Shown here one piece after another: positions 2,995 through 64,000 of a DNA stretch of 64,000 nucleotides; position 1 is the first letter of the stretch, and each line of letters begins with the position of its first letter. A program made the translations under genes and the position numbers. A model generated the notes under the pieces. It ran no database searches and was not told the origin of the DNA. It worked only from the letters and a program-made list of their open reading frames with translations. The stretch covers positions 1,984,001-2,048,000 of the forward strand of contig OZ257142.1 of assembly GCA_965279035.1 (NCBI GenBank), in the 5' to 3' direction. The stretch comes from Bacteroidia bacterium. GTDB lineage: Bacteria; Bacteroidota; Bacteroidia; M30B66.

Positions 2995-4449
2995 TTATTT
3001 CCAAAACTCAGACATTTTCATTTTTTCTTTCGACAAACGTGTCACAAAAAAGAACTGATACAATTCCCAGAACCACACTCTGCGGCCAATACGCGTATAC
3101 CATCGCATAGCACTTCGCAATCGTGCTTCTTTGTGAAAGAATAAACGATAAACAGCTTTGGGTCGAGTTTGCATTATGATTTCAATGAGCTTTACATACA
3201 TTATTACTAACCAGGGTGGTAAATAACGGGTAGAAATTACTTGGTGTTTATAATCCCATTTTCGTTGATCAGTCAGAATGATTTCTTTGTCTTTAACATC
3301 CTCAAAATAAGGTGTCCATTTGTGTGGAGTAACATATAAAAGTTGCACCTGATCGGGATCGTAGGAAAGTAATTGTTTTAAGCTATTGTAAAAATCGCGA
3401 GTTTTTTCTTCACCAAATCCAACTACATACGTTGCCATTGATAAAATCCCATGTTTACGTAATAATTGAATAGCTTCTTTGTCTTTTGAAATTGTTCCGG
3501 CTTTTTTGATTTTTTCAAGGACTACTTCATCGTAATTCTCAATACCCAATAGAAAGCGCTCAAATCCTGCTTGCTTGGATAAATGAAGGAAATCTGCATC
3601 GCGTACAATATTATCAGCACGAATAGATCCAACCAAAATCAATTTTAGATTCTTCGCAATAACTGCTTCTAAAAAGGAACGCCATGCTTTTGGATTGGAA
3701 GATGGATTTTCATCTGCAAAATTGATAACCTCAATGCCATATTCATGATGAAGCATTTCAATTTCATCGGCTAATTTCTGTGGATCACGGTGACGCCATT
3801 TCTTCCAGAAAAGACTTTGTCCACAATAGGTACAAGGGTAGGGGCAACCACGCGAAAATTGAATTACTACTGCCTTTCGTTTTCCCCAATACGTGTAATT
3901 GTAGTCCTTCATTAATTCCCAAGCAATGCGGTAATCATCGAGGCAAGCAATGTTATCGGCTGCTGTGGTTTTAATTGCGACTTTATTGTTTCGGAATGCA
4001 ATTCCTTTGATAGATTCTAATGAAGATTGATCTTCTAAAGCCTTTATTAATTCAAGACAAATAGCTTCTCCTTCACCACAAACAATGAAATCTATTTGAG
4101 GCTGTGATTCTAGTATTTCTTTCCAATGGTATGTGGGAAAAACTCCACCAATAATGCATCGAATTTCAATAGATATTTTTCTAATTTCTGCTGTAATTTT
4201 ATTGATAATTGGCTGAGCTGAAGTGGAACCGGAATGTCCAAGAAGAATTGCATCTGGATTGCGTTTTAAAATTTCAGCAACGATAAATTCAATGGAATAA
4301 TTGTAATAATCGGCATCCAATAATTCAACCTGATGTCCCGCATCAATTAAAGGACCTGCTATAGATAACAATCCTAATGGCGGTAAATGTTCATGTGCTA
4401 AACGACTTCCAATTGATAAATGAGGTGGATTAATGATGAGTAAATACAT
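2995..4449 (-). CDS. Cobalamin-binding radical SAM enzyme, BchE-like
   Basis: N-terminal B12-binding domain (PPLGLLSIAG...GGVFPT...GEGE) and radical SAM motif SRGCPYPCTYC. Confidence 0.85.
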   Translation of the reverse strand: MYLLIINPPHLSIGSRLAHEHLPPLGLLSIAGPLIDAGHQVELLDADYYNYSIEFIVAEILKRNPDAILLGHSGSTSAQPIINKITAEIRKISIEIRCIIGGVFPTYHWKEILESQPQIDFIVCGEGEAICLELIKALEDQSSLESIKGIAFRNNKVAIKTTAADNIACLDDYRIAWELMKDYNYTYWGKRKAVVIQFSRGCPYPCTYCGQSLFWKKWRHRDPQKLADEIEMLHHEYGIEVINFADENPSSNPKAWRSFLEAVIAKNLKLILVGSIRADNIVRDADFLHLSKQAGFERFLLGIENYDEVVLEKIKKAGTISKDKEAIQLLRKHGILSMATYVVGFGEEKTRDFYNSLKQLLSYDPDQVQLLYVTPHKWTPYFEDVKDKEIILTDQRKWDYKHQVISTRYLPPWLVIMYVKLIEIIMQTRPKAVYRLFFHKEARLRSAMRWYTRIGRRVWFWELYQFFFVTRLSKEKMKMSEFWK

Positions 4450-7357: not shown

Positions 7358-8959
7358 ATGAATAAAAAACTACTCTCAGCATTTCTTTTTGTCGGAATGT
7401 TGATTAATGCTTCTGCTCAATCGCCTTGGTTACTTGATCCTTCTTGGAGTTCCGATGGAAAAACAATGATCGATTATGGCTTTCAAGATAATCTAACTTG
7501 CATAACAGTAGATCCCAATAATTTAACTGTTCTCACTGGCGGAACGGCTATCAGCTCAACTACTTTTGGAGGAAATTTGCTTATCAGTCGATATTTATCG
7601 GATGGTTCACTCGATCCTACATTTGATGGTGATGGGAATATCATCTTGACCAATTTCACGGAATCATACGCATATGATATTGAATTATTAAGCAACGGAA
7701 AAATACTAGTAGCAGGAGCCTCAGCGAATCCACAGTATCAGTTTTCGATGTTACTTATGCGATTAAATGCTGATGGTACTTTCGATTCAAGTTTTGGAAC
7801 AGATGGAATTGTTCAAACGGATTTAGCACCTGCAGATGAATTTGCTAATTCAATGGCCATTCAATCGGATAACAAAATTGTACTTGCAGGATCGGCTGGT
7901 GATGTGAATTACAATAACATGCCTGCGCTTGTGCGATATAATGAAAATGGAACACTCGATTTATCATTTGGCAACAATGGAATTGTAGCACTTCCGGTTT
8001 CTCAAATCGATAATGAATTTTCAAAAGTGATGATTCAAACGGATGGGAAAATTGTAGCTGTAGGACATTGGGATCAAGGATTAACAAATGGTGGACAACA
8101 GAATTTCGATATTCTTTTAGCACGTTTCGAATCAACTGGTCAACCTGATATGAGTTTTGGAAATGCTGGTATTGTAATAACACCAGTTTCACCTGTCTAT
8201 TCAGAGGAAGCATACGGGTTACAGATTTTATCCACAGGAGAAATACTTGTTTCGGGCTTCACACTTGCTTTGGATCAAAGTCAGGATATTGTCCTTTTAA
8301 AGTATACTTCAACTGGAGATCCTCAATTAACATTTGGAGTAAATGGACAAGTCATTTTTAATCGAACAACTGGTGATGTAGCATATGATATGATGCTTCA
8401 GGGAGATCAGATTTTAATTTCAGGAGCAATTGGAAATACGATTGATGACTTAGATTTCCTTTTAGCACGCTTTAATTCGGATGGAGAACCCGATTCGAGT
8501 TTTGGTGCAAACAGTGTTATTCGTACAGATATTCAAGCTGGTTTTGACGAAGCGAATGCCATCACTTCAATGCCTGATGGGCGCATTTTTTTAGCTGGTA
8601 AAGGCAGTAATGGTGTGCAAAATGATGCCGTTACTGTTCGATATACACGTGATGGTTTGCCTATTGGAATGTTCGATTTAACCGGCAATGCATCCATTCA
8701 ATTGTATCCTAATCCTGTTCATTCAGGCAGTACCATCCAGTTAAATCTTTCCGGCAAAAAAACGGATTTGATCCAAGTGTCGATTTATACTGTTCAAGGG
8801 ACATGTGTATGGAAGCAGACTCTTCGATCAACTAACACAACTGAAGCAAACAAAATACAAATAGAACTACCTACAAGTTTATCATCAGGCATGTATTTAC
8901 TTCAGGTAGATGAAGATAACACGCACCCACAATCAATCCGGTTAGGAGTATTTAACTAA
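7358..8959 (+). CDS. Secreted delta-60-repeat beta-propeller protein with T9SS CTD
   Basis: Signal peptide ASA-Q; repeated DGKIV.AG...RYN.DGTLD.SFG.NG units; C-terminal LYPNP...SGMYLLQV. Confidence 0.88.
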   Translation: MNKKLLSAFLFVGMLINASAQSPWLLDPSWSSDGKTMIDYGFQDNLTCITVDPNNLTVLTGGTAISSTTFGGNLLISRYLSDGSLDPTFDGDGNIILTNFTESYAYDIELLSNGKILVAGASANPQYQFSMLLMRLNADGTFDSSFGTDGIVQTDLAPADEFANSMAIQSDNKIVLAGSAGDVNYNNMPALVRYNENGTLDLSFGNNGIVALPVSQIDNEFSKVMIQTDGKIVAVGHWDQGLTNGGQQNFDILLARFESTGQPDMSFGNAGIVITPVSPVYSEEAYGLQILSTGEILVSGFTLALDQSQDIVLLKYTSTGDPQLTFGVNGQVIFNRTTGDVAYDMMLQGDQILISGAIGNTIDDLDFLLARFNSDGEPDSSFGANSVIRTDIQAGFDEANAITSMPDGRIFLAGKGSNGVQNDAVTVRYTRDGLPIGMFDLTGNASIQLYPNPVHSGSTIQLNLSGKKTDLIQVSIYTVQGTCVWKQTLRSTNTTEANKIQIELPTSLSSGMYLLQVDEDNTHPQSIRLGVFN

Positions 8960-9814: not shown

Positions 9815-12800
9815 ATGAAAACGATGTTCTCTTTGCTCTCGATGCGCTTGGTTAAAGTGCTTTTTGTTTGTTGTACTACGGTTGGACTTGCTGGTGTTGG
9901 TGTTTACCAGTATCTACAGCCGCCGACTCTTTCGTATGTGGAAGATTTCGCTCCTTACATTTCTGGTTTTACCAATGGTACAGTTGGAAAGAAATCAGCC
10001 GTTCAGGTGCTTCTTAATTTTGATCATCCAGATGAAATCGTCCCCGGAAAAGTTATTGAAGATGAATTGCTCGAATTTGAGCCTTCGGTAAAAGGTGAAC
10101 TGAAATGGAACGATAAACGAACACTTGAATTTGTTCCTTCCCAACCGCTCGAAAGCGATCAGGAATATTATTGCACGTTTCGACTAGGAGAAGTGCTTGA
10201 TACTTTGCCTAAAAAATTCCGAAAATTCGTATTTAAGTTCCGCACTTTTAAACAAGATTTTCGGGTCGATTACGATGGATTAAGTCCGCTTTCTAACAAT
10301 GATCCGCTATGGCAACATTTAAATGGCCGCATCCAAGCAAATGATGATATCGACTCAACCGGTACCATGAAAATGGTTACTGCCACGCAAGATGGTCGTG
10401 AACTAAAAATTAAATGGGATTTACAAGAAATTAATTGGGGAAGCCACTTAGCTCATTTTACTATCGATAGCATTCGTCGTGGTGAAAAAGCTGGAAAAGT
10501 ACATGTCGAAATTGATGGAAATTCGATTGGTGTAGACCGACAAGATAAACGCGATTTTGTAGTGCCATCGATGGGTGATTTTAATGTTCAAAATGCTACA
10601 ATAGAACAATTTCCTGAGCAAAGTATTCTCATTCAGTTTAGCGATCCAATTCGCAATGGACAGCAGTTGCAAGGGATGCTTCGAATCGAAGGTCAGCCCG
10701 AACCACGTATCATTTTAGAAGATAATTCCATTCGATTATTTCCAGCATTAAAATTAAAAGGAACATATACTATTTTGGTTAGTGCAGGTATTGAAAATGT
10801 GTGGGGATACCGCATGAATAAAGGAGAAAAAGTATCAGTAGAATTTCTTCCCCTCAAACCCAATATTCGAATGATTAGTCAGGGAGTTATATTACCTGAT
10901 GCTGGAAAATTGTTCTTTCCTTTTGAAGCCGTGGGCTTGAAGGCTGTTGATGTACAAGTGTATAAACTTTATGAAAACAACATCCTACAATTTCTACAAG
11001 TCAATGATTTAAATGGACAAGATGAATTATTACGTGTAGGAAAAAAAGTTCTTTCTAAAAAGATTGATCTTAAATATGACACCATCACCGATCTTGAATT
11101 TTGGCATCGTTACGCTATTGATTTAGGAAGTTTAATTCGTACCGAACCGGGTGCTATGTATCGAGTGAAATTGTCGATGCAAAAGGACTACGCTATTTGG
11201 GATTGTCCTGCTGTAAATCCGGGTGATGAGGAAGAAGAAGAAGACTACGAAGAAAAAGCACCGGAAGTTGATTTCACTCAATACCGACAAGATGATGGTT
11301 CAGATGAGAATTATTCTTGGGATTATGCCTATGAGAGTGATTATGCAAATAATCCATGTGAAAAAAGTTATTACCGCGAACGTCGCTACGGACACAATGT
11401 ACTTGCATCTGATTTAGGTGTAATTGTGAAACGCGAGCCCAATGGGAAGTTACATGTGGTTGTCAATAATCTACTTACGACACAGCCAATTCCAAATGCA
11501 ACGGTATTATTTTATAATTATCAGCAACAAGTTATTACACAGGGCACAACAGACGCCAATGGTATGATTGAACGAACTCCAGCTATCAAACCATTTGTGA
11601 TAGTAGTTAAAAGTGGCGCACAGCGTGGTTACATGAAATTGGATGAAGGCACATCATTATCGTTGAGCAATTTTGATGTAGATGGACGAACATCCGAAAA
11701 AGGAATTAAAGGATTTATTTACGGTGAGCGTGGCGTTTGGCGTCCGGGCGATTCTTTGTATTTGAATTTCATATTAGAAGATCCGCTTCACAGTGTTCCA
11801 AGCAAGCATCCCGTAACGATGGAATTGATGAATCCGATGGGACAAGTGGTAAATAAAATCATTCAAACCGAATCAGTAAATGGTTTCTATGATTTCAGAA
11901 CAGCGACTAATCCCGAAGCTCCAACGGGCAATTGGTTAGCGCAAGTTCATGTGGGAAACCGCAGTTTTACTAAGAACATCAAGATTGAAACGGTTAAACC
12001 GAATCGCCTGAAATTATACATGAATTTTGGGGGAAAGATGTTAAAGAAATCGGCACAAAAAGACACAGCACGTTTAGAAGTTAAATGGTTGCACGGAGCA
12101 GTTGCACGGAATTTAAAAGCAGATGTAGAAGTGAGTGTATCGCAAGCCAGTACTACATTTGAGAAATATCCGAATTATTGTTTTGATGATGCATTGAAAG
12201 GATTCGAATCACGTAAATTAACTTTGTTTGATGGAAATTTAAATGAACGAGGTTTAGCTGTTTTTTCAACCAAATTAGATGCAGGACAATCAGCTCCAGG
12301 CTTTTTAAGAGCCAACTTTTTTACCCGTGCTTTTGAAGAAGGTGGTGATTTTAGCACCGATCGTTTTTCTATCCTTTATTCACCTTATTCAAGCTATGCT
12401 GGGATTCGTGTTCCTGAATCGGATGGTCGACGTGATGTGCTCGAAACAGGAAAAGAAAACACCATTCAAATTGCCTCTGTTCGTGAAGATGGAACACCCG
12501 GAACATCGCGTTTACAAGTGAAAGTGTACAAGCTCAATTGGCAGTGGTGGTGGGATCGTTACGATGATGATATCAATTATTATTTAAGTCGCCCGGGGAT
12601 TTATCCAGTGTATGATTCGACCTATTCAACTAGCAATGGAAAAGCGGATTTGAAACTCAATTTTGATGAGAAATCTTGGGGACGCTATTTAATTCGTGTA
12701 ACCGACCTACAATCGGGACATGCCAGTGGAAAAGTGGTGTATTTTGAAAGTCCTTGGTGGCAACGTGGAAACAGCGCCGGGACGCAGTTTGCAAGTATGT

Positions 12801-15391
12801 TGAGTTTCTCGAGCGATAAAGAAAGCTATCGAGCAGGGGAGAAGGTTAAATTGAGTATTCCAAGTACTGGTAAAGGAAAAGCTTTGATTTCGATTGAAAG
12901 TGGGGAACGCATTCTTCAAAAGTTTTGGGTTGATACCGAAAAAGGAGAAACACATGCCGAGTTCACTTGTACACCTGATATGGCGCCTAATGCATACATA
13001 TTTGTGACTTTGTTGCAACCTCATGGAAGTGTGCAAAACGATTTACCTATGCGTTTGTATGGAATTATTCCATTGTCGGTTGAAGATCCCGCTACGCATT
13101 TGGAGCCACTCATTCAAATGGCTGATGTACTTGTTCCTGAGAGTACTGCTAAAATTACTGTGAAGGAAAAAAACGGCAAGCCGATGACATACACGCTTGC
13201 TTTGGTAGATGAAGGTTTGCTTGATTTAACACGCTTTCAAACTCCACAACCATGGGATGAATTTTATCAAAAAGAAGCATTACGTGTTAAAACTTGGGAT
13301 TTATATGATTGGGTAATTGGTGCTTATGGTGGAAAATTAAATCGAATTTTAAGTATTGGTGGTGATGGTTCTGGTTTGAATGGAAAGCAAGCGAAAGCCA
13401 ATCGTTTCAAGCCTGTGGTGCGTTTTGTTGGACCATTTTATTTGCCTGCAAAAGGTTCTCAAACACATTCCTTAAATCTCCCACAATATGTCGGTTCGGT
13501 TCGAGTGATGGTTGTTGCAGGAAATGCAGGTGCTTATGGCAATGCCGAGAAAACTGTTCCGGTGAAGAAACCATTGATGGTATTGGCTACACTGCCTCGT
13601 GTTGTTGGTCCTGATGAGTCGATTAGTTTGCCTGTTAACGTATTTGCGATGGAGGAAACTATTAAAAATGTTTCTGTTCAGGTGGAGGTAAATAATTTAT
13701 TGATGATGGAAGGCACAGCAGTTCAATCGACTCATTTTGATTTACCTGGTGATCAAGTGTTGAATTTTAGAATGAAAGTTGCTCAACGTGTTGGTATTGC
13801 TCGTATTAAAGTCACTGCGAAATGTGGTAAAGAAATAGCAATTCAAGATTTTGAGGTAGATGTTCGTCCTTCTAATTCTCCGTTTACTGAAATAAATCGG
13901 GTGAAATTGGAACCAGGAAAAGAACTGAGTTTAGATTTACCATTTACTGGATTGGATGGAAGCCATTCGCTTAGTTTAGAATCTTCGATTTTGCCTGTTG
14001 ATATTAGCAAGCGGATGAATTATTTAATTCAATATCCACATGGTTGTATTGAGCAGACTACATCATCGGCATTTCCACAATTAGCGATGCAGTCGGTATT
14101 GGATTTAAGTGCGAAGGAACAAATCAAGATCACCAATCATATTAAAGCTGCTTTGAACCGTATCGCCTTATTTCAGACACATTCGGGAGCTTTTTCCTAT
14201 TGGCCAGGTGAAGGAACAGCATCGGAATGGGGTACGAATTACGCTGGACATTTTATGTTAGAAGCAGAGCGTTTAGGGTATACACTACCTGTTGGGATGA
14301 AAAATCGTTGGGTGAAATATCAAGTGAATGAAGCTCAAAACTTCTCAGAAACCCGCATCACTTCAAGCGAACAGCTAACACAAGCCTATCGTTTATACAC
14401 CTTGGCTTTATCAGGAAATCCCGAACTAGGAGCGATGAACCGATTAAGAGAAACGAAAATCTTAAATCTCAGCACCCGCTGGCGTTTGGCTGCAGCTTAT
14501 GCACAATGTGGACAACCCGAAGTTGCTCGTTTATTAATTAAAAATCAGCCAAATCGAATTAAAAAGTATAAAGAACTTTCCAATACTTACGGAAGTGAAG
14601 GTCGCGATGAAGCCATGATTCTTGAAACCATGTTGTTGTTAAATGATCGAGTGGAATCGGAAAAATTGGTTGAGAAACTGATAAAAGAAATCAATAGTAC
14701 TACTTGGATGAGCACACAAACAACTGCATACAGTTTAATTGCACTGGGAAAATACATGAATATTCAATCGAATAATGGTGCAATTTCCTTTAGCTATGTG
14801 TTGGATAAAAATGCTGCTATTTCACGCGTTCAATCAAAGCCAGCTTCGAAAGAAAACCTCATTCAAAACGCCGATCGAGCTGCACATCGCATTACTTTAA
14901 AAAATGATGGAAGGACATCTATTCATATTCGTTTGGTACGCGAGTATATTCCTTTGCAAGGCGATGAACCAACCGTGAATAAAGGCATGAAACTACTTTG
15001 GGCATTTAAAGATTTAGATGGAAAATACATTAGTCCGGATAAGCTTCAACAAGGAACCGACTTTATTTCTGAAGTCACTGTGGTAAATCCTGAGCAACGT
15101 TATTTACAAGAAATGACATTGAATCAGATTTTTCCTTCGGGATGGGAGATTCGTAATATTCGAATGGAAGAAAGTGGTCAATTGCAAAGTGATGCAGCGC
15201 GTTATCAAGATTACCGGGATGATCGTGTGTATACGTATTTCGACTTATCGGGAATGAATAAACGTACGTATCGTATTTTGCTTCATGCAACCTACAAAGG
15301 ACGATTTTACCTTCCCGGCATTGAGTGTGAAGCGATGTATGATCGGGACATTTATGCACGTGTAAAAGGTCGTTGGGTAGAAGTGAATTAA
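9815..15391 (+). CDS. Bacterial alpha-2-macroglobulin (YfhM-like) with intact thioester motif
   Basis: 1858 aa; N-terminal hydrophobic anchor; ERGVWRPGD MG2 motif; LALVDEG; YPHGCIEQ thioester; DYRDDR and EAMYD C-terminal motifs. Confidence 0.93.
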   Translation: MKTMFSLLSMRLVKVLFVCCTTVGLAGVGVYQYLQPPTLSYVEDFAPYISGFTNGTVGKKSAVQVLLNFDHPDEIVPGKVIEDELLEFEPSVKGELKWNDKRTLEFVPSQPLESDQEYYCTFRLGEVLDTLPKKFRKFVFKFRTFKQDFRVDYDGLSPLSNNDPLWQHLNGRIQANDDIDSTGTMKMVTATQDGRELKIKWDLQEINWGSHLAHFTIDSIRRGEKAGKVHVEIDGNSIGVDRQDKRDFVVPSMGDFNVQNATIEQFPEQSILIQFSDPIRNGQQLQGMLRIEGQPEPRIILEDNSIRLFPALKLKGTYTILVSAGIENVWGYRMNKGEKVSVEFLPLKPNIRMISQGVILPDAGKLFFPFEAVGLKAVDVQVYKLYENNILQFLQVNDLNGQDELLRVGKKVLSKKIDLKYDTITDLEFWHRYAIDLGSLIRTEPGAMYRVKLSMQKDYAIWDCPAVNPGDEEEEEDYEEKAPEVDFTQYRQDDGSDENYSWDYAYESDYANNPCEKSYYRERRYGHNVLASDLGVIVKREPNGKLHVVVNNLLTTQPIPNATVLFYNYQQQVITQGTTDANGMIERTPAIKPFVIVVKSGAQRGYMKLDEGTSLSLSNFDVDGRTSEKGIKGFIYGERGVWRPGDSLYLNFILEDPLHSVPSKHPVTMELMNPMGQVVNKIIQTESVNGFYDFRTATNPEAPTGNWLAQVHVGNRSFTKNIKIETVKPNRLKLYMNFGGKMLKKSAQKDTARLEVKWLHGAVARNLKADVEVSVSQASTTFEKYPNYCFDDALKGFESRKLTLFDGNLNERGLAVFSTKLDAGQSAPGFLRANFFTRAFEEGGDFSTDRFSILYSPYSSYAGIRVPESDGRRDVLETGKENTIQIASVREDGTPGTSRLQVKVYKLNWQWWWDRYDDDINYYLSRPGIYPVYDSTYSTSNGKADLKLNFDEKSWGRYLIRVTDLQSGHASGKVVYFESPWWQRGNSAGTQFASMLSFSSDKESYRAGEKVKLSIPSTGKGKALISIESGERILQKFWVDTEKGETHAEFTCTPDMAPNAYIFVTLLQPHGSVQNDLPMRLYGIIPLSVEDPATHLEPLIQMADVLVPESTAKITVKEKNGKPMTYTLALVDEGLLDLTRFQTPQPWDEFYQKEALRVKTWDLYDWVIGAYGGKLNRILSIGGDGSGLNGKQAKANRFKPVVRFVGPFYLPAKGSQTHSLNLPQYVGSVRVMVVAGNAGAYGNAEKTVPVKKPLMVLATLPRVVGPDESISLPVNVFAMEETIKNVSVQVEVNNLLMMEGTAVQSTHFDLPGDQVLNFRMKVAQRVGIARIKVTAKCGKEIAIQDFEVDVRPSNSPFTEINRVKLEPGKELSLDLPFTGLDGSHSLSLESSILPVDISKRMNYLIQYPHGCIEQTTSSAFPQLAMQSVLDLSAKEQIKITNHIKAALNRIALFQTHSGAFSYWPGEGTASEWGTNYAGHFMLEAERLGYTLPVGMKNRWVKYQVNEAQNFSETRITSSEQLTQAYRLYTLALSGNPELGAMNRLRETKILNLSTRWRLAAAYAQCGQPEVARLLIKNQPNRIKKYKELSNTYGSEGRDEAMILETMLLLNDRVESEKLVEKLIKEINSTTWMSTQTTAYSLIALGKYMNIQSNNGAISFSYVLDKNAAISRVQSKPASKENLIQNADRAAHRITLKNDGRTSIHIRLVREYIPLQGDEPTVNKGMKLLWAFKDLDGKYISPDKLQQGTDFISEVTVVNPEQRYLQEMTLNQIFPSGWEIRNIRMEESGQLQSDAARYQDYRDDRVYTYFDLSGMNKRTYRILLHATYKGRFYLPGIECEAMYDRDIYARVKGRWVEVN

Positions 15392-15685: not shown

Positions 15686-16954
15686 ATGAATTTAGTTGAA
15701 GAATTAAGGTGGAGAGGATTGCTCCATGATATAATGCCTGGAACTGAGGAATTACTAGCTAAAGAGCAAGTAAGTGCATACATTGGTTTTGATCCAACTG
15801 CAGAATCTCTTCACATAGGTTCTCTCGTGCAGATTATTTTATTAATGCATCTCCAGCGTCACGGACACTTGCCCATTGCCTTGGTGGGTGGTGCAACCGG
15901 AATGATTGGCGATCCATCTTTCAAAGCCGAAGAGCGTAAAATGCTCAACGAAGAAACTTTAAATAAAAATGTTGCAGGCATAGAAGCTCAATTGCGTCGC
16001 TTTTTGGATTTTGAAAAAGGGGCAACATTGGTCAATAATTACGACTGGTTTAAAGAATTTAGTTTGCTTGGATTTATGCGTGAAGTAGGCAAGCATATTT
16101 CTGTCAATTACATGATGGCAAAAGATTCTGTAAAGAAGCGTCTCGAAACGGGAATTTCTTTTACAGAATTCAGTTATCAACTCATCCAAGGCTATGATTT
16201 TTACTGGCTTTGGAAAAATAAAAACGCCAAACTTCAAGTTGGAGGTTCGGATCAATGGGGAAATATTGTTACAGGAACTGAACTCATTCGCCGCATTGGT
16301 GGAGGAGAAGCCTTTGCTTTAACAGTGCCTTTGGTTACTAAAGCGGATGGGACAAAATTTGGAAAAACCGAATCCGGAAATGTTTGGCTCGATGCCCGTT
16401 TAACCAGCCCATATGCATTTTATCAGTTTTGGTTAAATACTTCGGATGAAGATGCTGAGAAATACATCAAGATATTTTCTTTTTTGAGTCAAAGTGAAAC
16501 AGATGAATTAATCCTCAATCATCGGGAACAACCACATTTGCGATCCTTACAAAAACGTTTGGGGAAAGAAGTAACTTGCTTGGTTCATGGGATTGAAGAA
16601 TACGAAGGGGCTATTGGTGCAACTGAAATATTATTTGGGAATGGCACTTCTGAGCAACTAGCGGCAATGAGTGAATCAATTTTTCTTCAAGTGTTTGAAG
16701 GTGTTCCGCAATACACGATTTCCCGTTCTGAATTTGAATCTGGAATTCCTATAATTGAACTATTGGCTAGTTATTCTCAAATAATGCCTTCCAAAGGGGA
16801 AGCTCGTAAAATGATTCAGCAAAATGCTATTTCATTGAATAAAGAAAAATTCGTTGATGCTGCTGGAATAGTTAATACCGGAAATTTAATCAATGATAAA
16901 TACGTGCTTGTTCAAAAAGGAAAGAAGAATTATTATTTAATTATAGCTTCATAA
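15686..16954 (+). CDS. tyrS: Tyrosine--tRNA ligase
   Basis: [15 protein letters not shown] (HIGH-like), [16 protein letters not shown] (KMSKS-like), C-terminal S4 domain. Confidence 0.98.
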
Positions 16955-21009: not shown

Positions 21010-21500
21010 TGGATATTTTATAAATAAATTGATTTAGGCTAAAATACTTTATTTACGCAACTATATTGTTTAATTTATTTACATGATTCTTTCATTAATT
21101 CATTTGTATTTAAGCTATAAAATGAAGATATATTTTCATTTATAAAAATACTAGTTTGAGGTATTTATTCTAGAGTGAAAATGATTTTTAATTTGAAATA
21201 ATATTTAATTTATTTCAATAAAATATTCAAATTCAATTTCATGCATTTCAGTTAATATTAGTTTCATGTTTTCCAATTATTTTCGATGATGTTCTAAGAA
21301 GAATAAATCACATTATTTCTCATTTTAAGGAAAATGAAATATTTCTAAATGATTCTTATTAAGAATCTTGAATGCATGAAATAGGTTATTTGACGTGCAT
21401 TTGATCGCTTATTAACACCATTGTTTGTTAATTCATTTCATTCCTACTTCATTAATTCAAAAAACGCTTTTATATTGTGCCTGTCTTAACCAAAAGAAAC

Positions 21501-23195
21501 ATGCGAAAAATTTATTTTATCTGGGCTTATATGCTAAGTATAAGTTTGTTGAGTTGTCAAAAAGAAATTCTTTTAACAGAGAATTCGGAAGTATCAAGCC
21601 CTATTTCACACACGAAATCATTACTATTTGAAACCATCGAAACTGGAACTAAAACAGCATACACAACTGCGAATGTTAGTTTGAATTCTGGTTCATGGAC
21701 TTTCAATGATGCATTAATAGGAAATTCAGCGTCCGACCGTAAAAATGGAGCACAATCAGCGCGTATTCGTAATGCTGGTAAGCTAACCATGAATTTTGAT
21801 AAAACTAATGGAGCTGGTGATGTAACTATTTCTCATGCACTCTATGGTACTGATGCAGCATGTACTTGGCAACTTTATTATTCGCAAAATGCTGGCTCAA
21901 CATGGACAGCATTTGGAAGTCCAGTAACAACATCAAGTACTACGCTTACTTCAAGTTTATTCAAGCTTGATATCAGTGGAAATATTCGTTTGGATATTCG
22001 CAAAACGGACGGTTCAACCAGTCGTTTAAACATTGATGATATTAATATTGCTGATTATTCTTCTACCAATCCATCTCCTGTATTAAGTAGTATAAGCCCT
22101 AATACAAAAGTTGCCGGATCTGCTGCTTTTACAATTACAGTTACAGGTTCGAATTTCGTAAATGGATCAAGCATCAATTGGAATGGAACAGCTTTAACTA
22201 CAACGTATACAAGTTCTGTTCAGCTTACTGCTTCCGTTGCTGCAAACTTAATATCAACAGATGGAACTGCTTCTGTTAGTGTTGTAACACCAGCACCAGG
22301 AGGTGGGACTTCAACAAGTTCTTCTTTTACTATAACTTCCATTCCTGTAAATACGACCAAGAAATTTTTATTTGATAACCGACATGCCGAAACTGCTGGA
22401 AATGCCGATTGGGTAATGGATGCAGATAACAATGTGGCTGCACGTTTTCCAACACCTTTGCAAAGCAATGTTACTTCAACTACTGCCGAAACCTATTGGA
22501 AAGGAGCAATCTCGGCTTGGGGTATTGCTTTAGTTAAACTCGGGCATACAGTTGAAACATTACCAACTTCTTCTTCAATTTCTTATGGTAATTCAAGCAA
22601 TACTCAAGATTTAAGTAATTATAATGTGTTTGTGGTTGATGAACCCAATACAGTATTTACTTCTGCCGAGAAAACAGCAATTTTAAATTTTGTGCAAAAT
22701 GGAGGTAGTTTAATGATGATTTCCGATCATACAATTTCCGATAGAAATAACGATGGTTGGGATTCTCCTATGATTTGGAATGACTTAATGAGCAACAATA
22801 CAGTTCAAACTAATCCTTTTGGATTTACGATCGATTATACAGATATATCAACAACTTCATCCAATGTGAGCACATCAACACATCCAATTCTGAATGGAAC
22901 TCAAGGAAATGTGACCAGCTTGCAATTTAATAATGGAGCAACCATCTCAATTAATCCTACTGCAAATTCATCAGTGCAAGGTTTAGTTTGGACATCTGGT
23001 GTTACTAAAAACAATTCGAATATTTTATGTGCAAGTAGTACGTTTGGGAGCGGACGTGTTTTTGTTTTAGCCGATAGTTCACCTGTAGATGATGGAACTG
23101 GAGCAACAACAGATGTTTTATATAATGGTTGGGGTGTTTATAGTCATTCAAAATTGTTATTGAATGCTTCGTTGTGGTGTGCTAAAGTGCAATAA
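21501..23195 (+). CDS. Lipoprotein with N-terminal beta-sandwich, IPT/TIG domain and uncharacterised alpha/beta C-terminal domain
   Basis: Lipobox SLLSC after ATG 21501; PVLSSISP...ITVTGSNF TIG pattern; C-terminal FLFDNRHAETAGNADW...SDH...DRNNDGWD. Confidence 0.75.
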   Translation: MRKIYFIWAYMLSISLLSCQKEILLTENSEVSSPISHTKSLLFETIETGTKTAYTTANVSLNSGSWTFNDALIGNSASDRKNGAQSARIRNAGKLTMNFDKTNGAGDVTISHALYGTDAACTWQLYYSQNAGSTWTAFGSPVTTSSTTLTSSLFKLDISGNIRLDIRKTDGSTSRLNIDDINIADYSSTNPSPVLSSISPNTKVAGSAAFTITVTGSNFVNGSSINWNGTALTTTYTSSVQLTASVAANLISTDGTASVSVVTPAPGGGTSTSSSFTITSIPVNTTKKFLFDNRHAETAGNADWVMDADNNVAARFPTPLQSNVTSTTAETYWKGAISAWGIALVKLGHTVETLPTSSSISYGNSSNTQDLSNYNVFVVDEPNTVFTSAEKTAILNFVQNGGSLMMISDHTISDRNNDGWDSPMIWNDLMSNNTVQTNPFGFTIDYTDISTTSSNVSTSTHPILNGTQGNVTSLQFNNGATISINPTANSSVQGLVWTSGVTKNNSNILCASSTFGSGRVFVLADSSPVDDGTGATTDVLYNGWGVYSHSKLLLNASLWCAKVQ

Positions 23196-25398: not shown

Positions 25399-26621
25399 GG
25401 AACTTATGCTGTATTGTGATGAAATATCATGATATATTTTTATTGGATTGAACTGGATTTTAAAAACAAGCACATCTTTATATAAAGTTTATTTTTTTTA
25501 TGAATCGATTGATACTTATTTTTTGTTTTTTGTCGGGATATTCTTTCTCACAACAAACACCTGTTTTTCTTGCTGCATTTACAAATGGTGGAACCTTTTA
25601 TGATGAAGGTGGTTTTGGCACCTTGTCAGTTCTTACAGGTGACGCATCAATCATTAACACATTTAATTTACCAAATGAAAATCCAGGTTTAGACGCTCAA
25701 CATCCAGAATTAATTGAGACTTCAAACGGTAAAATTTATGGGCTTCATCGAGATGGTGGAAATGAAGGATTAGGTTTATTATTTGAATTTGATCCACTAA
25801 CACAATTTTATTCAATAAAACATGAGTTTAGTGATTCTGGCCTAATTGGTCATTCTCCCGAAGGTGGGATGATTTTATTACCTGATGGGAGATTATTAGG
25901 AACTACCTCATCAGGTGGAATTAACCAATCGGGAACTATTTTTTCATTTTCACCCATTAATGGGGCAGTACATGTTGAAGCTCAATTTGGTAATTCAACT
26001 GCTAAATGGCCTTCAGGTCAATTACTAATGGCATCAGATGGATGGGTTTATGGAACAACTTCAAATGGGGGCTTATCGGGATTAGGAACTATCTATCGTT
26101 TTCATCCGAATACAAATCAGCTGCAGGTTGTTTATGAATTTAATTCCATTGCAACTGGAACAGAACCAACTGGAGGTCTTTGTGAATTATCTGATGGGAA
26201 ATTATATGGATTTTGTAAATCGGGAGGTGAAGCTGCTTCAGGAGTTATTTATTCATTTCAATTAAATAATCAACAATATCAAGTTGTAAAATCGTTTGGC
26301 TGGAATGGAGATTATGGATATCCAGAAACCGGAAATGCTCCTGTTAAACTAGATGAATCAACATTTATTGCAGTTTTGGCAAACGGAGGAACTAATGGAA
26401 ATGGAAGTTTATTAAAGTGGAGCACATCAACACCTGATCCAGAATTTCTTTATCAGTTTTCAGTTTCAACAGGTGGTCAATCGAACGGACGAATAGTGAA
26501 ACATTCAAATGGAAATTGGTATTGGCTTTCAATCAATTTTACAAATGCAGCTCAAGTAGTTGAATATAATTTTAATTGACTATCGGCTTGACTGAACCTA
26601 AATGTTTTTTACTTCTGAAAT

Positions 26622-26860
26622 ATGACGAAAGAAGAAATTGCCAAGTACGCATACGAACCGACTAGTGTAACACTAGAACCGAAATCACTTTTAAAGATGG
26701 TGAAATTATAGTTGGGTACTTTCAAGGTAATACTCAAAAGAGCGATAACTTTTTTGAAAATAAATGGAGTTTTGTTAAAACGCCAATTATGAATCCCAAA
26801 GGAATAGAAACCATTTATAATGGAAATGATTTTCAAAGCGTTCGTGTTATTTATGTTTAA
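26622..26860 (+). pseudogene. Frameshifted small passenger ORF (about 79 aa)
   Basis: MTKEEIAKYAYEPTSV in one frame continues as NTRTEITFKDGEIIVGYFQG...ENKWSFVKTP...QSVRVIYV* after a single 1-nt shift near 26666-26709. Confidence 0.5.
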
Positions 26861-27174
26861 AAACCTCTTGATTTAAGCCGTTTTGCAGTTAGCATTAAAG
26901 GGAAAGTAAAGTGAGGGTTCATTTTTAACATTGCGGCTCTTATAGCATCTCTAATCTCAAGCGATGGCTGAATACGATATGCGTAGTTAATATCTATCTT
27001 CTCTTGTTCAGTCATTTTACTTCCGATTTCCATTTCTTCAGCTGAATAAAATTCGTTGAATATTACTTCTAGCATTCGAAGGTTATCAATTGTTAGGTCT
27101 TTTAAGGAAATTTGCACATCATAATTCTTGGAATTATGTTCAGCTATTTTAATTGTTACTTCTGGATTCTCCAT
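26857..27174 (-). CDS. Hypothetical passenger protein (about 105 aa)
   Basis: ORF 26857..27216; ATG at 27174 (MENPEV) preferred; lies wholly inside the TIR element. Confidence 0.6.
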   Translation of the reverse strand: MENPEVTIKIAEHNSKNYDVQISLKDLTIDNLRMLEVIFNEFYSAEEMEIGSKMTEQEKIDINYAYRIQPSLEIRDAIRAAMLKMNPHFTFPLMLTAKRLKSRGF

Positions 27175-29682
27175 TTTAAATTGTTTTGGGAGTGAATGTT
27201 TGAATTGTTGTTTCAAGTGCGACGTGGTTCAGATAAGCCGATAGTCATTTAATTTTAATTCAAACTCAATAAATGTTGTTTTAGATTCAATTCCTACCGG
27301 ATTCATATTGGGAACCCCTTTTGAGCATTCCTCTCAAAATCTAATTATTTTATCAGGAACAGGGAATCATTATTATGGTGGAGAATTGCACACATTTAAT
27401 CCTGAAAACCTAAGCGATTCGTTTATTCCACTTCATTTTAAATCTGAAGGAGCTCGACCTATTGGACCCTTGTGTTTAGCGTCGGATGGAAATTATTATG
27501 GATTATGCAGCATAGGTGCATTTCCTGAAGACAATTTAGGTTATGGTGCAGGTTTTAAATACAATCCTAGCAATCATTCCTATACACGATTATTTACGTT
27601 TGAAGGGACTGTTGTTAGAAGCGCAACTGGGATATTTACAGAAGGGGATACTGGTAAATTGTATGTACTAGTTGTAGGATCTCAAGGTGGTAGACCAAGA
27701 ATTATTCAATATGACATTAATACTGATGAATTGACTGTTGTTGTGAATTTCACAAATCTAGATGGGGATATTCCTTCCAATGGTTTGTTGAAAGCGAGTA
27801 ATGGTAAATTATACGGAACAACTACAAATGGTGGAGGAGGTGGAAGTATAGGAACCCTCTTCGAATTTGATCCAGCAACTTTGCAGTTTTCTACTCGATA
27901 TCGATTTAATAATCAAGCAATAGGTGCACAACCTTATGGCACTCTTATACAAGTGGCTCCAGATAAATTGATTGGTACAACTTTGTCGGGTGGTTTTACT
28001 ATTTCCGGGACTATTTATGAATTCACTATATCGACTGGAGTTGTTGTTTTAAAACAAACATTTAATTCAAGCAATGGGGCTAAACCATATGGTGGTTTAA
28101 TAGATGGAGGAGATGGTTTATTATACGGAACAACTTCCGAAGGAGGAACTGAAAATGAAGGAACAATTTACAGTTATAATTTCGTGAATAATACAATACA
28201 AACACTTGCAAGTTTTGGTTCTTTTGATCTCAATCATCCTTATTGTAATTTGACGATAGCATCTGATGGTTGGTTGTATGGTGTGACGAATGGAAATAAT
28301 GTTCGTGGTGGATTATTTCGATATAGCCCATCAAATCAACAATTGGAATTAATTCGTCAGTTTCGCAATAACGAAGGGTATGGAGCTATTTACAACCATC
28401 AATTACAAGAATTAAATGGAGTTTTAACTACTAATTCTATTCCTACAACACTTTGTTATGGTAGTTCTTTTTATGTGAAATTTGCTTGTAGTTCTTCCTT
28501 TCCAACAGATCATGTTTTCTCTGCAGAACTGAGTGATTCAAATGGAAGTTTTATTAATCCTTTGATCATTGGAAGTGTAGTTTCATCAACTGCCGATTCG
28601 GTTCTCGTTACAATTCCAAGTTCAATTCCATTGGGGATTGGATATCGCATTCGAGTTCGTGCTGAAGATGATTCAATGCTTAGTATTGATAATGGTTTCG
28701 ATATTACCATAGGCACTCCTGTTTTGGGAAGTGTAAATTTAGATTTGATAAATCAGGAGCCTATTTGTGCTGGAGAAGAACTACAATTCCAAGCATATAT
28801 CAGTGGTTTTACTAATTCGTGTCAATGGTTTTTGAACGATGTAGCATTTTTCAATTCTGGATTGTCGTTTATTAGTAATTCCTTAGTTCAAGGTGATGTT
28901 ATTTCGGTAAAACTTAATCCAGGTACAGGCTGTTTTACACAAACTCAATATGTGTCAAATTCCATTTATGTTGATTATTTTTCGAATGCTCTTCCAAGCG
29001 TGGACTTAGTAGTACCAACAAGCTTTTGCGAAGGATCAATTATCGATATTAATACCAATGATTATGCTTCTGGAAATTTGCCTACTTACAATTGGTACCT
29101 AAATGGACAACAACAAATCATAAGTAATTCAATGATCTCTATCCCATTGTCGATTGAATTAAATAATCAAACACTTTGGGTTGAAATGACTTCTTCTTTA
29201 ACTTGTGTAAGTCAATCGTCAGTATTTAGTGATACACTTGTGTTTGATATTCATGAGATTGATCAAACAGATGTATATGTAAATTTAGTATCGGGCGATA
29301 GTGTATTTGTAGGAGGCGCTTGGCAATATGAGGCTGGAACGTATACAGACATTTTAACGAATACATTTGGATGCGATAGTATTATTCAAACGTATGTGGA
29401 TATTATTTTGGATGATGGAAATCTAACTAATTCTAATGATTGGATTTTTCATTCCAATATAGAATGGGGAACAATACAATTTGGTTTATTAAATTCGATA
29501 GAATTCAATTGGGCACTTTATGATATTCTAGGTCGAAAGGTAAAAGCCGGAACATCCAATTCTTTAGTTGAATTGCATGTTGAAGATTTAACTTCAGGTG
29601 TGTATGTTTTGAGAATTGATTCAGGGATAAGAAATCACACTCAAAAATGGATAAAATAAATGATAATTAATTCAATTAATTT

Positions 29683-29718: not shown

Positions 29719-29907
29719 TTAACGTTGGCAGGAATTTCCTCCACATCCTGTATTACTAATGCCTTGCCAGAGAAAGAAGGCTCCAATTAATCCATACATT
29801 AAATTAGATGTTGTTACTCCTTCCATGAATGCAGATATCCCAATTACAATTCTTAGTATCCTTAACAGATGCCAGTTGTGTAATAATCCATTTAAAATAG
29901 CATTCAT
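29719..29907 (-). CDS. Small 2-TM protein (DUF2892/YgaP-like) in rhodanese operon
   Basis: 62 aa, two TM segments, C-terminal GCGGNSC; ATGA overlap with the upstream rhodanese. Confidence 0.7.
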   Translation of the reverse strand: MNAILNGLLHNWHLLRILRIVIGISAFMEGVTTSNLMYGLIGAFFLWQGISNTGCGGNSCQR

Positions 29908-30212
29908 CTTATTTTATTCAATAATGAATTCCATGGTCCACCATTAAATGCTGTAATTCCATTGGCAGATAATTGACTTTTAGCAGCACTACTTCTTGCT
30001 CCACTTCGACAAACCGTAATGACTGTTTTATTTTTCTTTTTTAATTCTTCCATTTTCGTTCGAATAGAATCAAGTGGAATATTTAATGAGCCAGGAATAT
30101 GTCCAGATTTATATTCAGCCACTGAACGAACATCAACGATAATGGCACCTTCTGAAACCAGTTGCTTAAAGTCGGTTGGCTCTCCGAACATTTTTTTGAG
30201 AAACGAAAACAT
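29904..30212 (-). CDS. Rhodanese-like sulfurtransferase
   Basis: IVDVRSVAEYKSGHIPGSLNIP; active-site loop CRSGARS. Confidence 0.92.
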   Translation of the reverse strand: MFSFLKKMFGEPTDFKQLVSEGAIIVDVRSVAEYKSGHIPGSLNIPLDSIRTKMEELKKKNKTVITVCRSGARSSAAKSQLSANGITAFNGGPWNSLLNKIR

Positions 30213-30215
30213 AGT

Positions 30216-30497
30216 TTATTGGATTTCAAATTGAATATCGTAAATACTACCAGCATTGTAAACTTCATTTATGCCTTCGCGCATAAGAATGCTACAAGCT
30301 AATGCGCTTCTTGCTCCACTGCGACAAAATACAATAAGAGGTTTGCTGAGTTGTTTTACTTCATCTATACGATGCTCTAATTGGTCTACAGGAATATTAA
30401 TTGATTGAGGAATCTGTTCAGACATAAATTCCATGGGGCTGCGAACATCGAGTAAAGTTCTGCCTTGAGTTTGGAGTAATTCAGTGATTGAATTCAT
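30216..30497 (-). CDS. Rhodanese-like sulfurtransferase
   Basis: LLDVRSPMEF...SINIP; active-site loop CRSGARS. Confidence 0.92.
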   Translation of the reverse strand: MNSITELLQTQGRTLLDVRSPMEFMSEQIPQSINIPVDQLEHRIDEVKQLSKPLIVFCRSGARSALACSILMREGINEVYNAGSIYDIQFEIQ

Positions 30498-62650: not shown

Positions 62651-64000
62651 TCAATTCCTCATTTTTATCCAGGGCATTGAAATGAAAGAATCACTATCGG
62701 ATAGCCGAATAAAATAAAATCCGCTGCTTAATTTTTCAGTATTGATACCAATCTTAAATTTCCCATCAATACTATATTGATTAGCATTTAATAGTTTTCC
62801 ATCAATACTTAAAATCTGAATGGTAACATTTCTTGGCTTTTCAGAATTTCCATTGATCACTAGATAATCTATACCTGGATTGGGAGAAATTGACAAATTA
62901 TTTAGTTGTGTTAAATCATGAATGCCAGATTTTATGACAACAACATCCATTGTTGATGTATCACTTCCACACCCATTTTCTACAATCAGACTTACTGGCC
63001 ATGTTGCGTCGTATGGAAAAATATGTGATGGGCTTGAACCTAGATTCGTAAAACCGTCTCCAAAATCCCAAGAATACGTATCTGCTATGGTTGAAACATT
63101 AAATTGAATTTCATACAATGCAATTCCTTCAGAATAAGTGAAAACTGAAGAAGGCGGCTGAATAAATTGTACCGATATAGCATCGGAAGTTCCAGTACAA
63201 CCATGAATATCCTCAGCACTTACCGAATAAAATCCACCCGAATTTATAGTGATTGATTGTCCATTAATTGAATTAGACCAAATATAATTCTGATAACCTG
63301 ATTCAGCTGTTAAGGTAATTGGATCACCTACACAAGCTGTTGGATTTGGAGGGGAAATAGCAATAGTAAATGGAGGAATTTGAGTTACAACTATTGGATC
63401 TGAAAGTAATAAGCAACCATTTGCATCATAAGTTGAAACACTATATGTTCCGCTTGTACCAATGTATTGAGTTTGTCCGTTTCCTGAATTAGACCAATAA
63501 TATTGATTATAACCATCTTCGGCAGTAAATAAAATATACTCACCATTACAGACATCAACCGGTCCTTGAGGACTTACATTTAGATGTCCTGGTAATGGAA
63601 ATTGAACTTGAATATCGAGTAAAGAACTTTCACAGCCATTGATGGTTTGAGAAACATAATAGTGTGTTTGGTTTGTAACACCAGAAGTGGATGGTGCTGG
63701 AATCTGTCCTGTGAAATCAAAATACCATTGCAAGGAATTTCCAGTTACTTGAATATCGTTAAGAGTTGCCGTTTGACAAAGCACTTGTGGCGAAATTCCT
63801 GTTGGAGCAGGTGTTGTATTTCCAATTTCGATATCTGTTGTAGTCGAAAAGCCAGGACAACCATCCAGAGTGTATGTAACAGTATAAATTCCAATTGAGC
63901 TTGTTTGGAGATGAATTTCGCCAGTAATTGGATCGATATCTAAGCCATTGGTTGAGGTAAAAGTCCCCCCACTTGTTCCTATGATACTAGGAATTGGATT
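62651..64000 (-). CDS. T9SS-secreted protein with Ig-like and PKD domains, 3' part (runs off the window end)
   Basis: Frame stays open from 63784 to 64000 (NPIPSIIGTSGGTF...); YYVSQTINGCES Ig-like module; YSWDFGDG PKD motif; ISPNP...SGFYFIRL CTD. Confidence 0.88.
   Translation of the reverse strand, partial: NPIPSIIGTSGGTFTSTNGLDIDPITGEIHLQTSSIGIYTVTYTLDGCPGFSTTTDIEIGNTTPAPTGISPQVLCQTATLNDIQVTGNSLQWYFDFTGQIPAPSTSGVTNQTHYYVSQTINGCESSLLDIQVQFPLPGHLNVSPQGPVDVCNGEYILFTAEDGYNQYYWSNSGNGQTQYIGTSGTYSVSTYDANGCLLLSDPIVVTQIPPFTIAISPPNPTACVGDPITLTAESGYQNYIWSNSINGQSITINSGGFYSVSAEDIHGCTGTSDAISVQFIQPPSSVFTYSEGIALYEIQFNVSTIADTYSWDFGDGFTNLGSSPSHIFPYDATWPVSLIVENGCGSDTSTMDVVVIKSGIHDLTQLNNLSISPNPGIDYLVINGNSEKPRNVTIQILSIDGKLLNANQYSIDGKFKIGINTEKLSSGFYFIRLSDSDSFISMPWIKMRN

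Follow-up and report, generated by a model that had tools for sequence, protein, structure and literature searches.

In a 64,000-nucleotide stretch of contig OZ257142.1 from a Bacteroidia bacterium (the window, by which we mean the whole stretch analysed), a gene for a secreted surface protein is split by a 675-bp element at 26575-27249. This element is very probably a non-autonomous derivative of the IS1595 family of insertion sequences (IS), a so-called mobile insertion cassette (MIC) moved in trans, whose arrival knocked out the gene. It has inverted ends with an 8-bp duplication directly outside them, its removal restores a single reading frame, an orthologue of the interrupted gene is intact and collinear, and the same ends bound transposase-bearing elements, MITEs (miniature inverted-repeat transposable elements) and further cassettes. 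A previous interpretation of the same DNA, made from its letters without database searches (the sequence-only reading), had proposed a transposase-less cassette inserted into one gene, and this proposal is borne out both by the lack of a transposase open reading frame (ORF) and by the uninterrupted orthologue.

An insertion within a single gene

The locus is composed of the following features.

25500-26579, plus strand: 5' fragment of the disrupted gene, an ORF of 359 codons with a hydrophobic N-terminus and GloVer repeats, its TGA contributed by the left end of the element
26567-26574: left copy of the target-site duplication, 8 bp, TAATTTTA, with the same 8-bp geometry as in the sibling elements
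26575-27249: non-autonomous element, 675 bp, delimited by reading of its 24-bp inverted ends and the 8-bp duplication
26575-26598, plus strand: left terminal inverted repeat, 24 bp, A-N-TGACTATCGGCTT..CTGAACC, the core of which also bounds the IS1595 elements L003 and L087
26622-26860, plus strand: passenger ORF classed as a pseudogene, 79 codons when read through, occupying the position of the transposase gene of autonomous copies
27174-26857, minus strand: intact passenger gene P0001, 105 aa, which converges on the plus-strand ORF and overlaps the stop codon there
27226-27249, minus strand: right terminal inverted repeat, 24 bp, from the sequence and a repeat search
27250-27257: right copy of the target-site duplication, 8 bp, TAATTTTA
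27258-29659, plus strand: 3' part of the disrupted gene, about 800 codons, with GloVer repeats, an Ig-like region and a C-terminal sorting domain of the type IX secretion system (T9SS)

The two arms agree at 21 of 24 positions and form the longest inverted repeat within 26000-27800, and the 8-bp duplication TAATTTTA directly outside both of them is perfect. These details had been described in the sequence-only reading and are confirmed here, together with the position of the stop codon of the upstream ORF, a TGA at 26577-26579 within the left arm. The pairing continues into the flanks (41 nt at 78%), because the target site is itself partly palindromic. A seeded search counted the inverted repeats whose arms lie 100-2000 bp apart and agree at 21 or more of 24 positions: this element was the single case in the whole window, against none in each of five mononucleotide shuffles of it. 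Furthermore, the 13-nt core TGACTATCGGCTT is found at just two places in the window, the two arms of the element. No transposase ORF is present in 26575-27249. A scan of 26400-27450 for sigma-70 promoters gave two promoter-like sites against 4.4 expected and no terminators, an uninformative outcome, the consensus used being different from that of Bacteroidota.

Deleting 26575-27257 by script (the element and one copy of the duplication) and translating 25500..29659 yielded 1158 codons with the sole stop at the end, the length that had been anticipated for the restored protein. The GloVer profile TIGR03803 matches both halves (2.9e-44 for the N half and 9.3e-42 for the C half), and the C-terminus of the 3' part is matched by TIGR04183 at 1e-9 and PF18962 at 4e-6, confirming the T9SS type A sorting domain that had been claimed for it. 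The target gene shows in this way both the repeats and the tail by which a GloVer-repeat T9SS cargo protein is recognised. The 5' fragment is predicted from its N-terminal sequence to carry a signal peptide, and the 3' part has at the junction neither a start nor a signal peptide of its own, its first listed start being a TTG at 27308.

Longer relatives of the N half were sought, and 400 proteins with an E of 1e-5 or better were listed. P0013, a metagenomic protein of 1171 aa, headed this list; it has a T9SS tail and covers 99% of the query at 66% identity. P0019 (1188 aa) and P0020 (1166 aa) came next, covering 99% of the N half at 47-48% identity. In pairwise alignment residues 1-357 of the N half match residues 8-365 of P0013 at 66% identity, and the part downstream of the insertion, translated from 27260, matches residues 368-1171 at 69%. 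Two residues separate the blocks in P0013 and in the split protein alike, with no gap at the insertion point, so that the orthologue is continuous through it. Relatives carrying the two halves as separate genes, for which the sequence-only reading had advised looking, are therefore not represented by P0013, and the alignment indicates that the GloVer-repeat T9SS gene was a single gene before the insertion. A scan of genome_contigs for N-half relatives gave 74 pattern matches, none of which was confirmed.

The locus was also followed in Logan data, which are assembled contigs of four runs from which rare variants have been dropped. In each of three runs of one sample a single contig spans 25400-29700 with zero differences and no joint. 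These assemblies are not independent of the window, which was probably derived from that sample; even so, the structure is not an assembly chimera, a concern that had been raised beforehand. The filled site alone was seen in these three runs, and neither a joint across 26575-27257, nor an empty site, nor a circle junction appeared in the contigs of the four runs, which cannot show rare variants.

A lineage of elements with the same ends

The ends were written as a strict pattern, TGACTATCGGCTTNNCTGAACC, with its two variable positions left open (the ends of the lineage are also written as TGACTATCNGNTTNNCTGAACC), and were scanned in genome_contigs and metagenome_contigs. The strict pattern returned two loci in genome_contigs, one in a Ferruginibacter and one in a Chitinophaga metagenome-assembled genome (MAG), and three in metagenome_contigs. 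A relaxed pattern returned 20 loci in genome_contigs, 14 in Bacteroidota MAGs and six in other phyla. Pairing the arms at up to six mismatches resolved 11 distinct elements besides that of the window, 12 in all. The six loci from other phyla, around which no second arm turned up inside 2.5 kb when six mismatches were allowed, were discarded as chance or unrelated occurrences, and five Bacteroidota loci with one arm only (L090, L091, L096, L100 and L104) were left out of the element count. In one MAG labelled Bifidobacteriaceae two contigs (L092 and L094) have a variant of the end pattern in common, TGACTATCCGCTTCTCTGAACC, with no second arm within 2.5 kb; these repeats could belong to another repeat family rather than being due to chance. 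The ends of the lineage occur one to six times in each of five MAGs, against zero for a reversed control pattern. The 11 elements are of four kinds.

L003 (1667 bp) and L087 (1317 bp): autonomous, each with one 306-aa transposase gene that begins about 54 nt inside an end
L001/L004/L088, L002/L103, L005, L098 and L105 (153-196 bp): five MITEs with no ORF of at least 40 aa and with an interior common to them
L095 (982-2579): MITE with a nested IS110-family transposase gene (346 aa; PF01548, PF02371), its flanking 8-mers agreeing at 5/8
L086, L097 and L099 (504, 558 and 505 bp): transposase-less cassettes with ORFs of 53-84 aa

The transposase of L003 is matched by NF033547, 'IS1595 family transposase', at 5.4e-54, by PF12762 at 1e-25 and by the zinc ribbon PF12760 at 1e-9, and that of L087 is 72% identical to it. 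Affiliation to the IS1595 family, suggested earlier from the letters, is upheld by the presence of these same ends and of 8-bp duplications on elements that encode IS1595 transposases. Likewise the end search, which the sequence-only reading had recommended, recovered the two things expected of it, siblings with different cargo (L086, L097 and L099) and autonomous copies (L003 and L087). The ORFs of the three sibling cassettes match no Pfam family and bear no likeness to each other or to the cargo of the window.

Defining an end as two bases plus TGACTATC... and comparing the adjoining 8 bp, we found a perfect 8/8 duplication in eight of the 12 elements (that of the window, L001, L002, L086, L087, L097, L099 and L105), and imperfect ones of 7/8 in L005 and L098 and of 5/8 in L003 and L095. 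The duplicated sites are AT-rich in all 12, and the targets of the siblings are unrelated to each other. Mismatches between arms are also found in elements whose duplications are perfect. This comparison bears on an alternative parsing that had been offered for the element, with a 22-bp repeat and a 6-bp duplication. In siblings such as L001 the TGACTATC core is separated from the 8-bp duplication by two bases that are not the same at both ends, and no 6-bp duplication abuts the core, a geometry that favours 24 bp plus 8 bp and leaves the alternative disfavoured.

Two of the cassettes, L097:1967-2524 and L099:2499-3003, come from one MAG and are identical over their first 70 nt (end, leader and ATG-CAA), with similar far ends and unrelated interiors that hold different small ORFs (78 and 70 aa in L097, 84 and 53 aa in L099). 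The shared leader contains the motif TGACAAAATAGCA, which is also present upstream of the transposase ATG of L003. This arrangement suggests that in L097 and L099 the coding part may have been replaced repeatedly behind a constant end and leader.

The passenger genes

Two cargo genes without assigned function had been read in the element. The minus-strand gene of 105 aa is indeed intact, whereas the plus-strand ORF is broken by a frameshift near 26666.

A longer form of the minus-strand protein P0001, 119 aa from a TTG at 27216, is also listed. A word-based homologue search with P0001 returned nothing except itself, on a contig of 4.2 Mb, and HMMER against 1.84 billion representatives returned six relatives of 98-122 aa (E 3e-15 to 2e-4, 31-48% identity) and, in addition, a brief segment of a protein of 2247 aa. 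All six small relatives come from metagenomes and are either labelled 'hypothetical protein' or nameless, and their alignment with P0001 has conserved blocks across the central helices. Judged by these relatives, P0001 belongs to a small, rare and unnamed protein family. The AlphaFold2 model built on the family alignment has a mean predicted local distance difference test score (pLDDT) of 79 and consists of a beta-hairpin followed by a helical hairpin. Foldseek of this model against the PDB gave no match at E 0.001 or better (best 1.1), and the best VIA-align Z of 7.6, on the helical hairpin, lies within the background that the tool states for helical models. P0001 has no match in Pfam, NCBIfam, PADLOC or PHROGs, and no usable one in the ESM Atlas; two of its relatives have weak matches in PHROGs, of unknown function, at E 0.03-0.08. 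Scans for the genomic context of these relatives, made with a second alignment, gave 230 pattern matches in genome_contigs and 327 in viral_contigs, with none confirmed in either.

Read through the break with X, the plus-strand ORF has no other stop in a three-frame translation. Its ATG is base 48 of the element, close to those of the transposases of L003 and L087 (54-55) and of the L097 and L099 ORFs (57). The cargo was met again in X1, a freshwater metagenome from another study. A 151-nt contig over 26640-26789 has one substitution and one extra base behind 26666, the latter restoring the reading frame at the break, and a second 151-nt contig over 26824-26974 has three differences. The copy in X1 is 98-99% identical to that of the window, and the three differences whose position is given all change an amino acid. 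Since the extra base restores the frame, the ORF of the window would be a pseudogene by a 1-bp deletion relative to the environmental copy. None of the X1 contigs falls on the flanking gene at a likeness of at least 85%; with a depth of about 4, and with the run having been found by words from 26000-27800, we do not take this to mean that the cassette stands there at another site.

For the 64-aa piece of the plus-strand ORF downstream of the break, the word-based search gave no sequence homologue and the profile searches no family. The weak leads for this ORF are phrog_1865 at 6e-4 and, in the Atlas, scores of 0.94-0.95 to unnamed clusters of 60-79 aa, one of them mostly viral. The two cargo ORFs are convergent with overlapping stops and so do not form an operon.

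Assignment and proposed mechanism

According to PMC8101967, IS1595-family elements have 8-bp duplications and a single transposase gene, whose product combines an N-terminal zinc finger with a DDE_Tnp_IS1595 domain. PMC3129680 explains what is meant by MITE, MIC and transporter IS and states that a cognate transposase can activate derivatives of this sort, and PMC2853133 describes units that carry genes and have imperfect inverted repeats, 8-bp duplications and no transposase inside. In the window, TAATTTTA is duplicated over 8 bp on both sides, and the ends are common to elements encoding a transposase with Zn_ribbon_IS1595 and DDE_Tnp_IS1595 (L003 and L087). The element lacks the transposase gene of an autonomous IS and is for that reason filed as a derivative. 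Inverted ends of IS type, no transposase and at least one passenger ORF make it a MIC; a MITE is small and non-coding, whereas this element has 675 bp and a conserved 105-aa gene, against 153-196 bp for the MITEs of the lineage.

We propose that an ancestral IS would have kept both 24-bp ends and lost its transposase gene, with two small passenger ORFs coming to lie between the ends. An IS1595-type DDE transposase from another copy, with an N-terminal zinc ribbon as well as the DDE_Tnp_IS1595 domain, would bind these ends and insert the cassette into an AT-rich site by 8-bp staggered cuts, the repair of which would give rise to the TAATTTTA duplication. Here the cassette landed in codon 359 of the 1158-codon gene for a GloVer-repeat protein exported by the T9SS, where the TGA of the left end would halt translation at once. 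The N-terminal fragment would then be deprived of the sorting domain and the C-terminal part of the signal peptide, and the insertion would therefore be a knock-out with loss of the surface protein. Mobilisation in trans is indirectly supported by the fresh duplications that sibling cassettes appear to have acquired at different sites. The perfect duplication and the otherwise open frame of 1158 codons point to a recent event. The similar positions of the start codons suggest that the plus-strand cargo may be expressed from the former transposase promoter. Since one of the two ORFs is already broken, our guess is that the cargo is dispensable, hitch-hiking DNA in this host.

Discussion

Several observations weigh against the assignment to a cassette mobilised in trans. 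No IS1595 transposase was found in the 64-kb window by tblastn with that of L003 (best E 0.86), and no close relative of the latter was found in any of the five MAGs that hold MITEs or sibling cassettes; one of these five has a 30%-identical IS1595 transposase, the MAGs being incomplete and several of the ends lying at contig breaks. The autonomous copy L003 itself lacks a clean duplication (5/8). Beyond the ends, about 26 bp each, the element of the window shares no sequence with any sibling; since the interiors have nothing in common, its link to them is carried by these 26 bp per end and by the geometry of the duplication. Finally, with no detectable homologue, the plus-strand ORF may never have been a gene.

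In the explanation that survives best beside our own, the element arrived by IS1595-type transposition and was then stranded in a genome that no longer has a compatible transposase, an immobile scar in a permanently dead gene. This differs from the preferred reading solely on present-day mobility. It would account for the lack of a transposase within the window, for the single copy of the ends in 64 kb and for the frameshift already present in one cargo ORF, and it is in line with the three mismatches in 24 positions of the arms and with the sibling-bearing MAGs, most of which have no detectable cognate transposase. However, a perfect duplication and a frame free of further stops over 1158 codons speak for a recent event, and arm mismatches are shared with elements whose duplications are perfect. 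We consider this fossil state possible, though doubtful.

A broader proposal can be built on the identical first 70 nt of L097 and L099 and on the ORF of our cassette starting at about the same place. The ends and 5' leader of one Bacteroidota IS1595 lineage would form a modular vehicle, with diverse small ORFs having replaced the transposase ORF time and again, at its start codon or close to it, so that the IS promoter drives the expression of small proteins that are shuffled in this way. In that case both the 105-aa family and the 79-codon ORF would be new mobile small proteins acting in conflict or surface biology, and insertions into T9SS surface-protein genes would be selected rather than accidental. 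Taken as a whole, we regard this as speculative and rather improbable.

The cargo might alternatively be the point of the element, the 105-aa protein, with or without the plus-strand protein, being spread by the cassette as a module of selfish or conflict type, resembling a toxin-antitoxin pair or acting against phages, for instance. Conservation of a small family with relatives down to E 3e-15, the confident and compact model of P0001 (pLDDT 79), the environmental copy at 98-99% identity whose extra base restores the frame, and the proximity of the plus-strand ORF to unnamed 60-79-aa Atlas clusters, one mostly viral, with its weak PHROG match (6e-4), would all fit. Set against them are the lack of any PADLOC, Pfam or NCBIfam match for the cargo, fold matches at background level (Z 7.6; Foldseek E 1.1 or worse), a convergent arrangement that is not an operon and has one member broken here, and the three variants of the environmental copy, all of them amino-acid changing. 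On balance such a module is unlikely.

The sequence-only reading had gone further and suggested that excision of the element acts as an on/off switch of the surface protein. By this account precise excision, either by a transposase or by slippage between the 8-bp repeats, would turn the protein on and off within the population. Removing the element with one repeat would indeed restore the frame, and the extension of the inverted repeat to 41 nt at 78% could favour slippage. Nevertheless no joint across 26575-27257 was seen in the four runs, although contigs cannot show rare variants, and the siblings sit in unrelated AT-rich targets that give no hint of site-specific reversibility. DDE transposition is not known to include precise excision as a regular step, which also counts against a switch. 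The suggestion finds no support, and we judge it very improbable.

As for two adjacent genes whose spacer holds an accidental inverted repeat, or an artefact of assembly, the AT-rich and partly palindromic flanks are all that could be said for it, and this explanation is refuted to the point of being negligible by the recurrence of the ends, with 8-bp duplications, on 11 other elements in other organisms, by the absence of such repeats from the shuffles, by the collinear P0013 orthologue without a gap and by the agreement of three assemblies.

The preferred reading, a transposase-less IS1595 cassette, can be placed among known systems. For IS1595-family insertion sequences the source is reportedly Siguier, Gagnevin and Chandler, 2009. 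The element shares with them the 8-bp duplications and short inverted ends, the same ends bounding single-gene elements with zinc ribbon and DDE_Tnp_IS1595; unlike them, the element of the window, with ends A-N-TGACTATCGG..., carries no transposase. MICs such as IS231-MIC231 of Bacillus cereus, for which De Palmenaer et al., 2004, is said to be the source, resemble it in having IS ends, no transposase, passenger ORFs and a presumed mobilisation in trans. They differ in belonging to the IS4/IS231 rather than the IS1595 family and in coming from a different phylum, and the mobilisation of our cassette is putative. Compared with the MITEs of its own lineage, the element has the same 24-bp ends and 8-bp AT-rich duplications, but not their shared interior, and those MITEs are of 153-196 bp with no ORF of at least 40 aa. 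Furuta, Abe and Kobayashi (2010; PMC2853133) describe transposon-like units carrying restriction-modification genes, whose insertion was proved against an empty site. These units are like our element in gene cargo, imperfect inverted repeats, 8-bp duplication and lack of an internal transposase, and unlike it in that the cargo here is two small ORFs and not a defence system. Furthermore, the empty site of our element is known at the protein level alone, from an orthologue at 66-69% identity.

The event is real but ordinary, both the mechanism and the kind of element having been described before. It is a clean and fully dissected example of how a transposase-less IS1595 cassette inactivates a gene, from a lineage of Bacteroidota that has been poorly sampled, and ties together the autonomous copies, MITEs and several small-ORF cassettes of one IS lineage. 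For annotation, a single disrupted gene should take the place of the two ORFs at 25500-26579 and 27308-29659, and the element should be labelled a MIC derived from IS1595. Through cassettes of this type small genes without a name would pass from one genome to another, and the 105-aa family would be worth studying.

Other features of the window

The region is rich in secreted repeat proteins. Near the split gene four further surface proteins are predicted, at 1125-2975, 7358-8959, 21477-23195 and 62651-63784; three have T9SS sorting tails, with delta-60 repeats as well in one of them, and the fourth is a choice-of-anchor Z repeat protein. Just past the split gene lie two adjacent single-domain rhodanese genes on the minus strand, at 29904-30212 and 30216-30497 (PF00581 at 2e-17 and 2e-12). 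The source organism seems to have no close relative in the genome collection searched (one genome per species), as judged from its TyrS (15686-16954, plus strand), for which identity to the 80 best loci does not exceed 64%.

Three larger or less usual genes were also noted. A bacterial alpha-2-macroglobulin of 1858 aa (MG2, bMG3/5/6/10, bait region, TED) is encoded at 9815-15391 on the plus strand. A B12-binding radical SAM protein at 2995-4449 on the minus strand scores 490.5 with TIGR02026 (BchE), barely above the curated cut-off of 481.35; the host looks like a non-phototrophic member of the Bacteroidota, and the BchE name may not reflect function. A single ORF of 7795 codons occupies 36458-59845 on the plus strand; its first 3000 residues have no Pfam match at 1e-5, and its last 2995 match just Ig_3.

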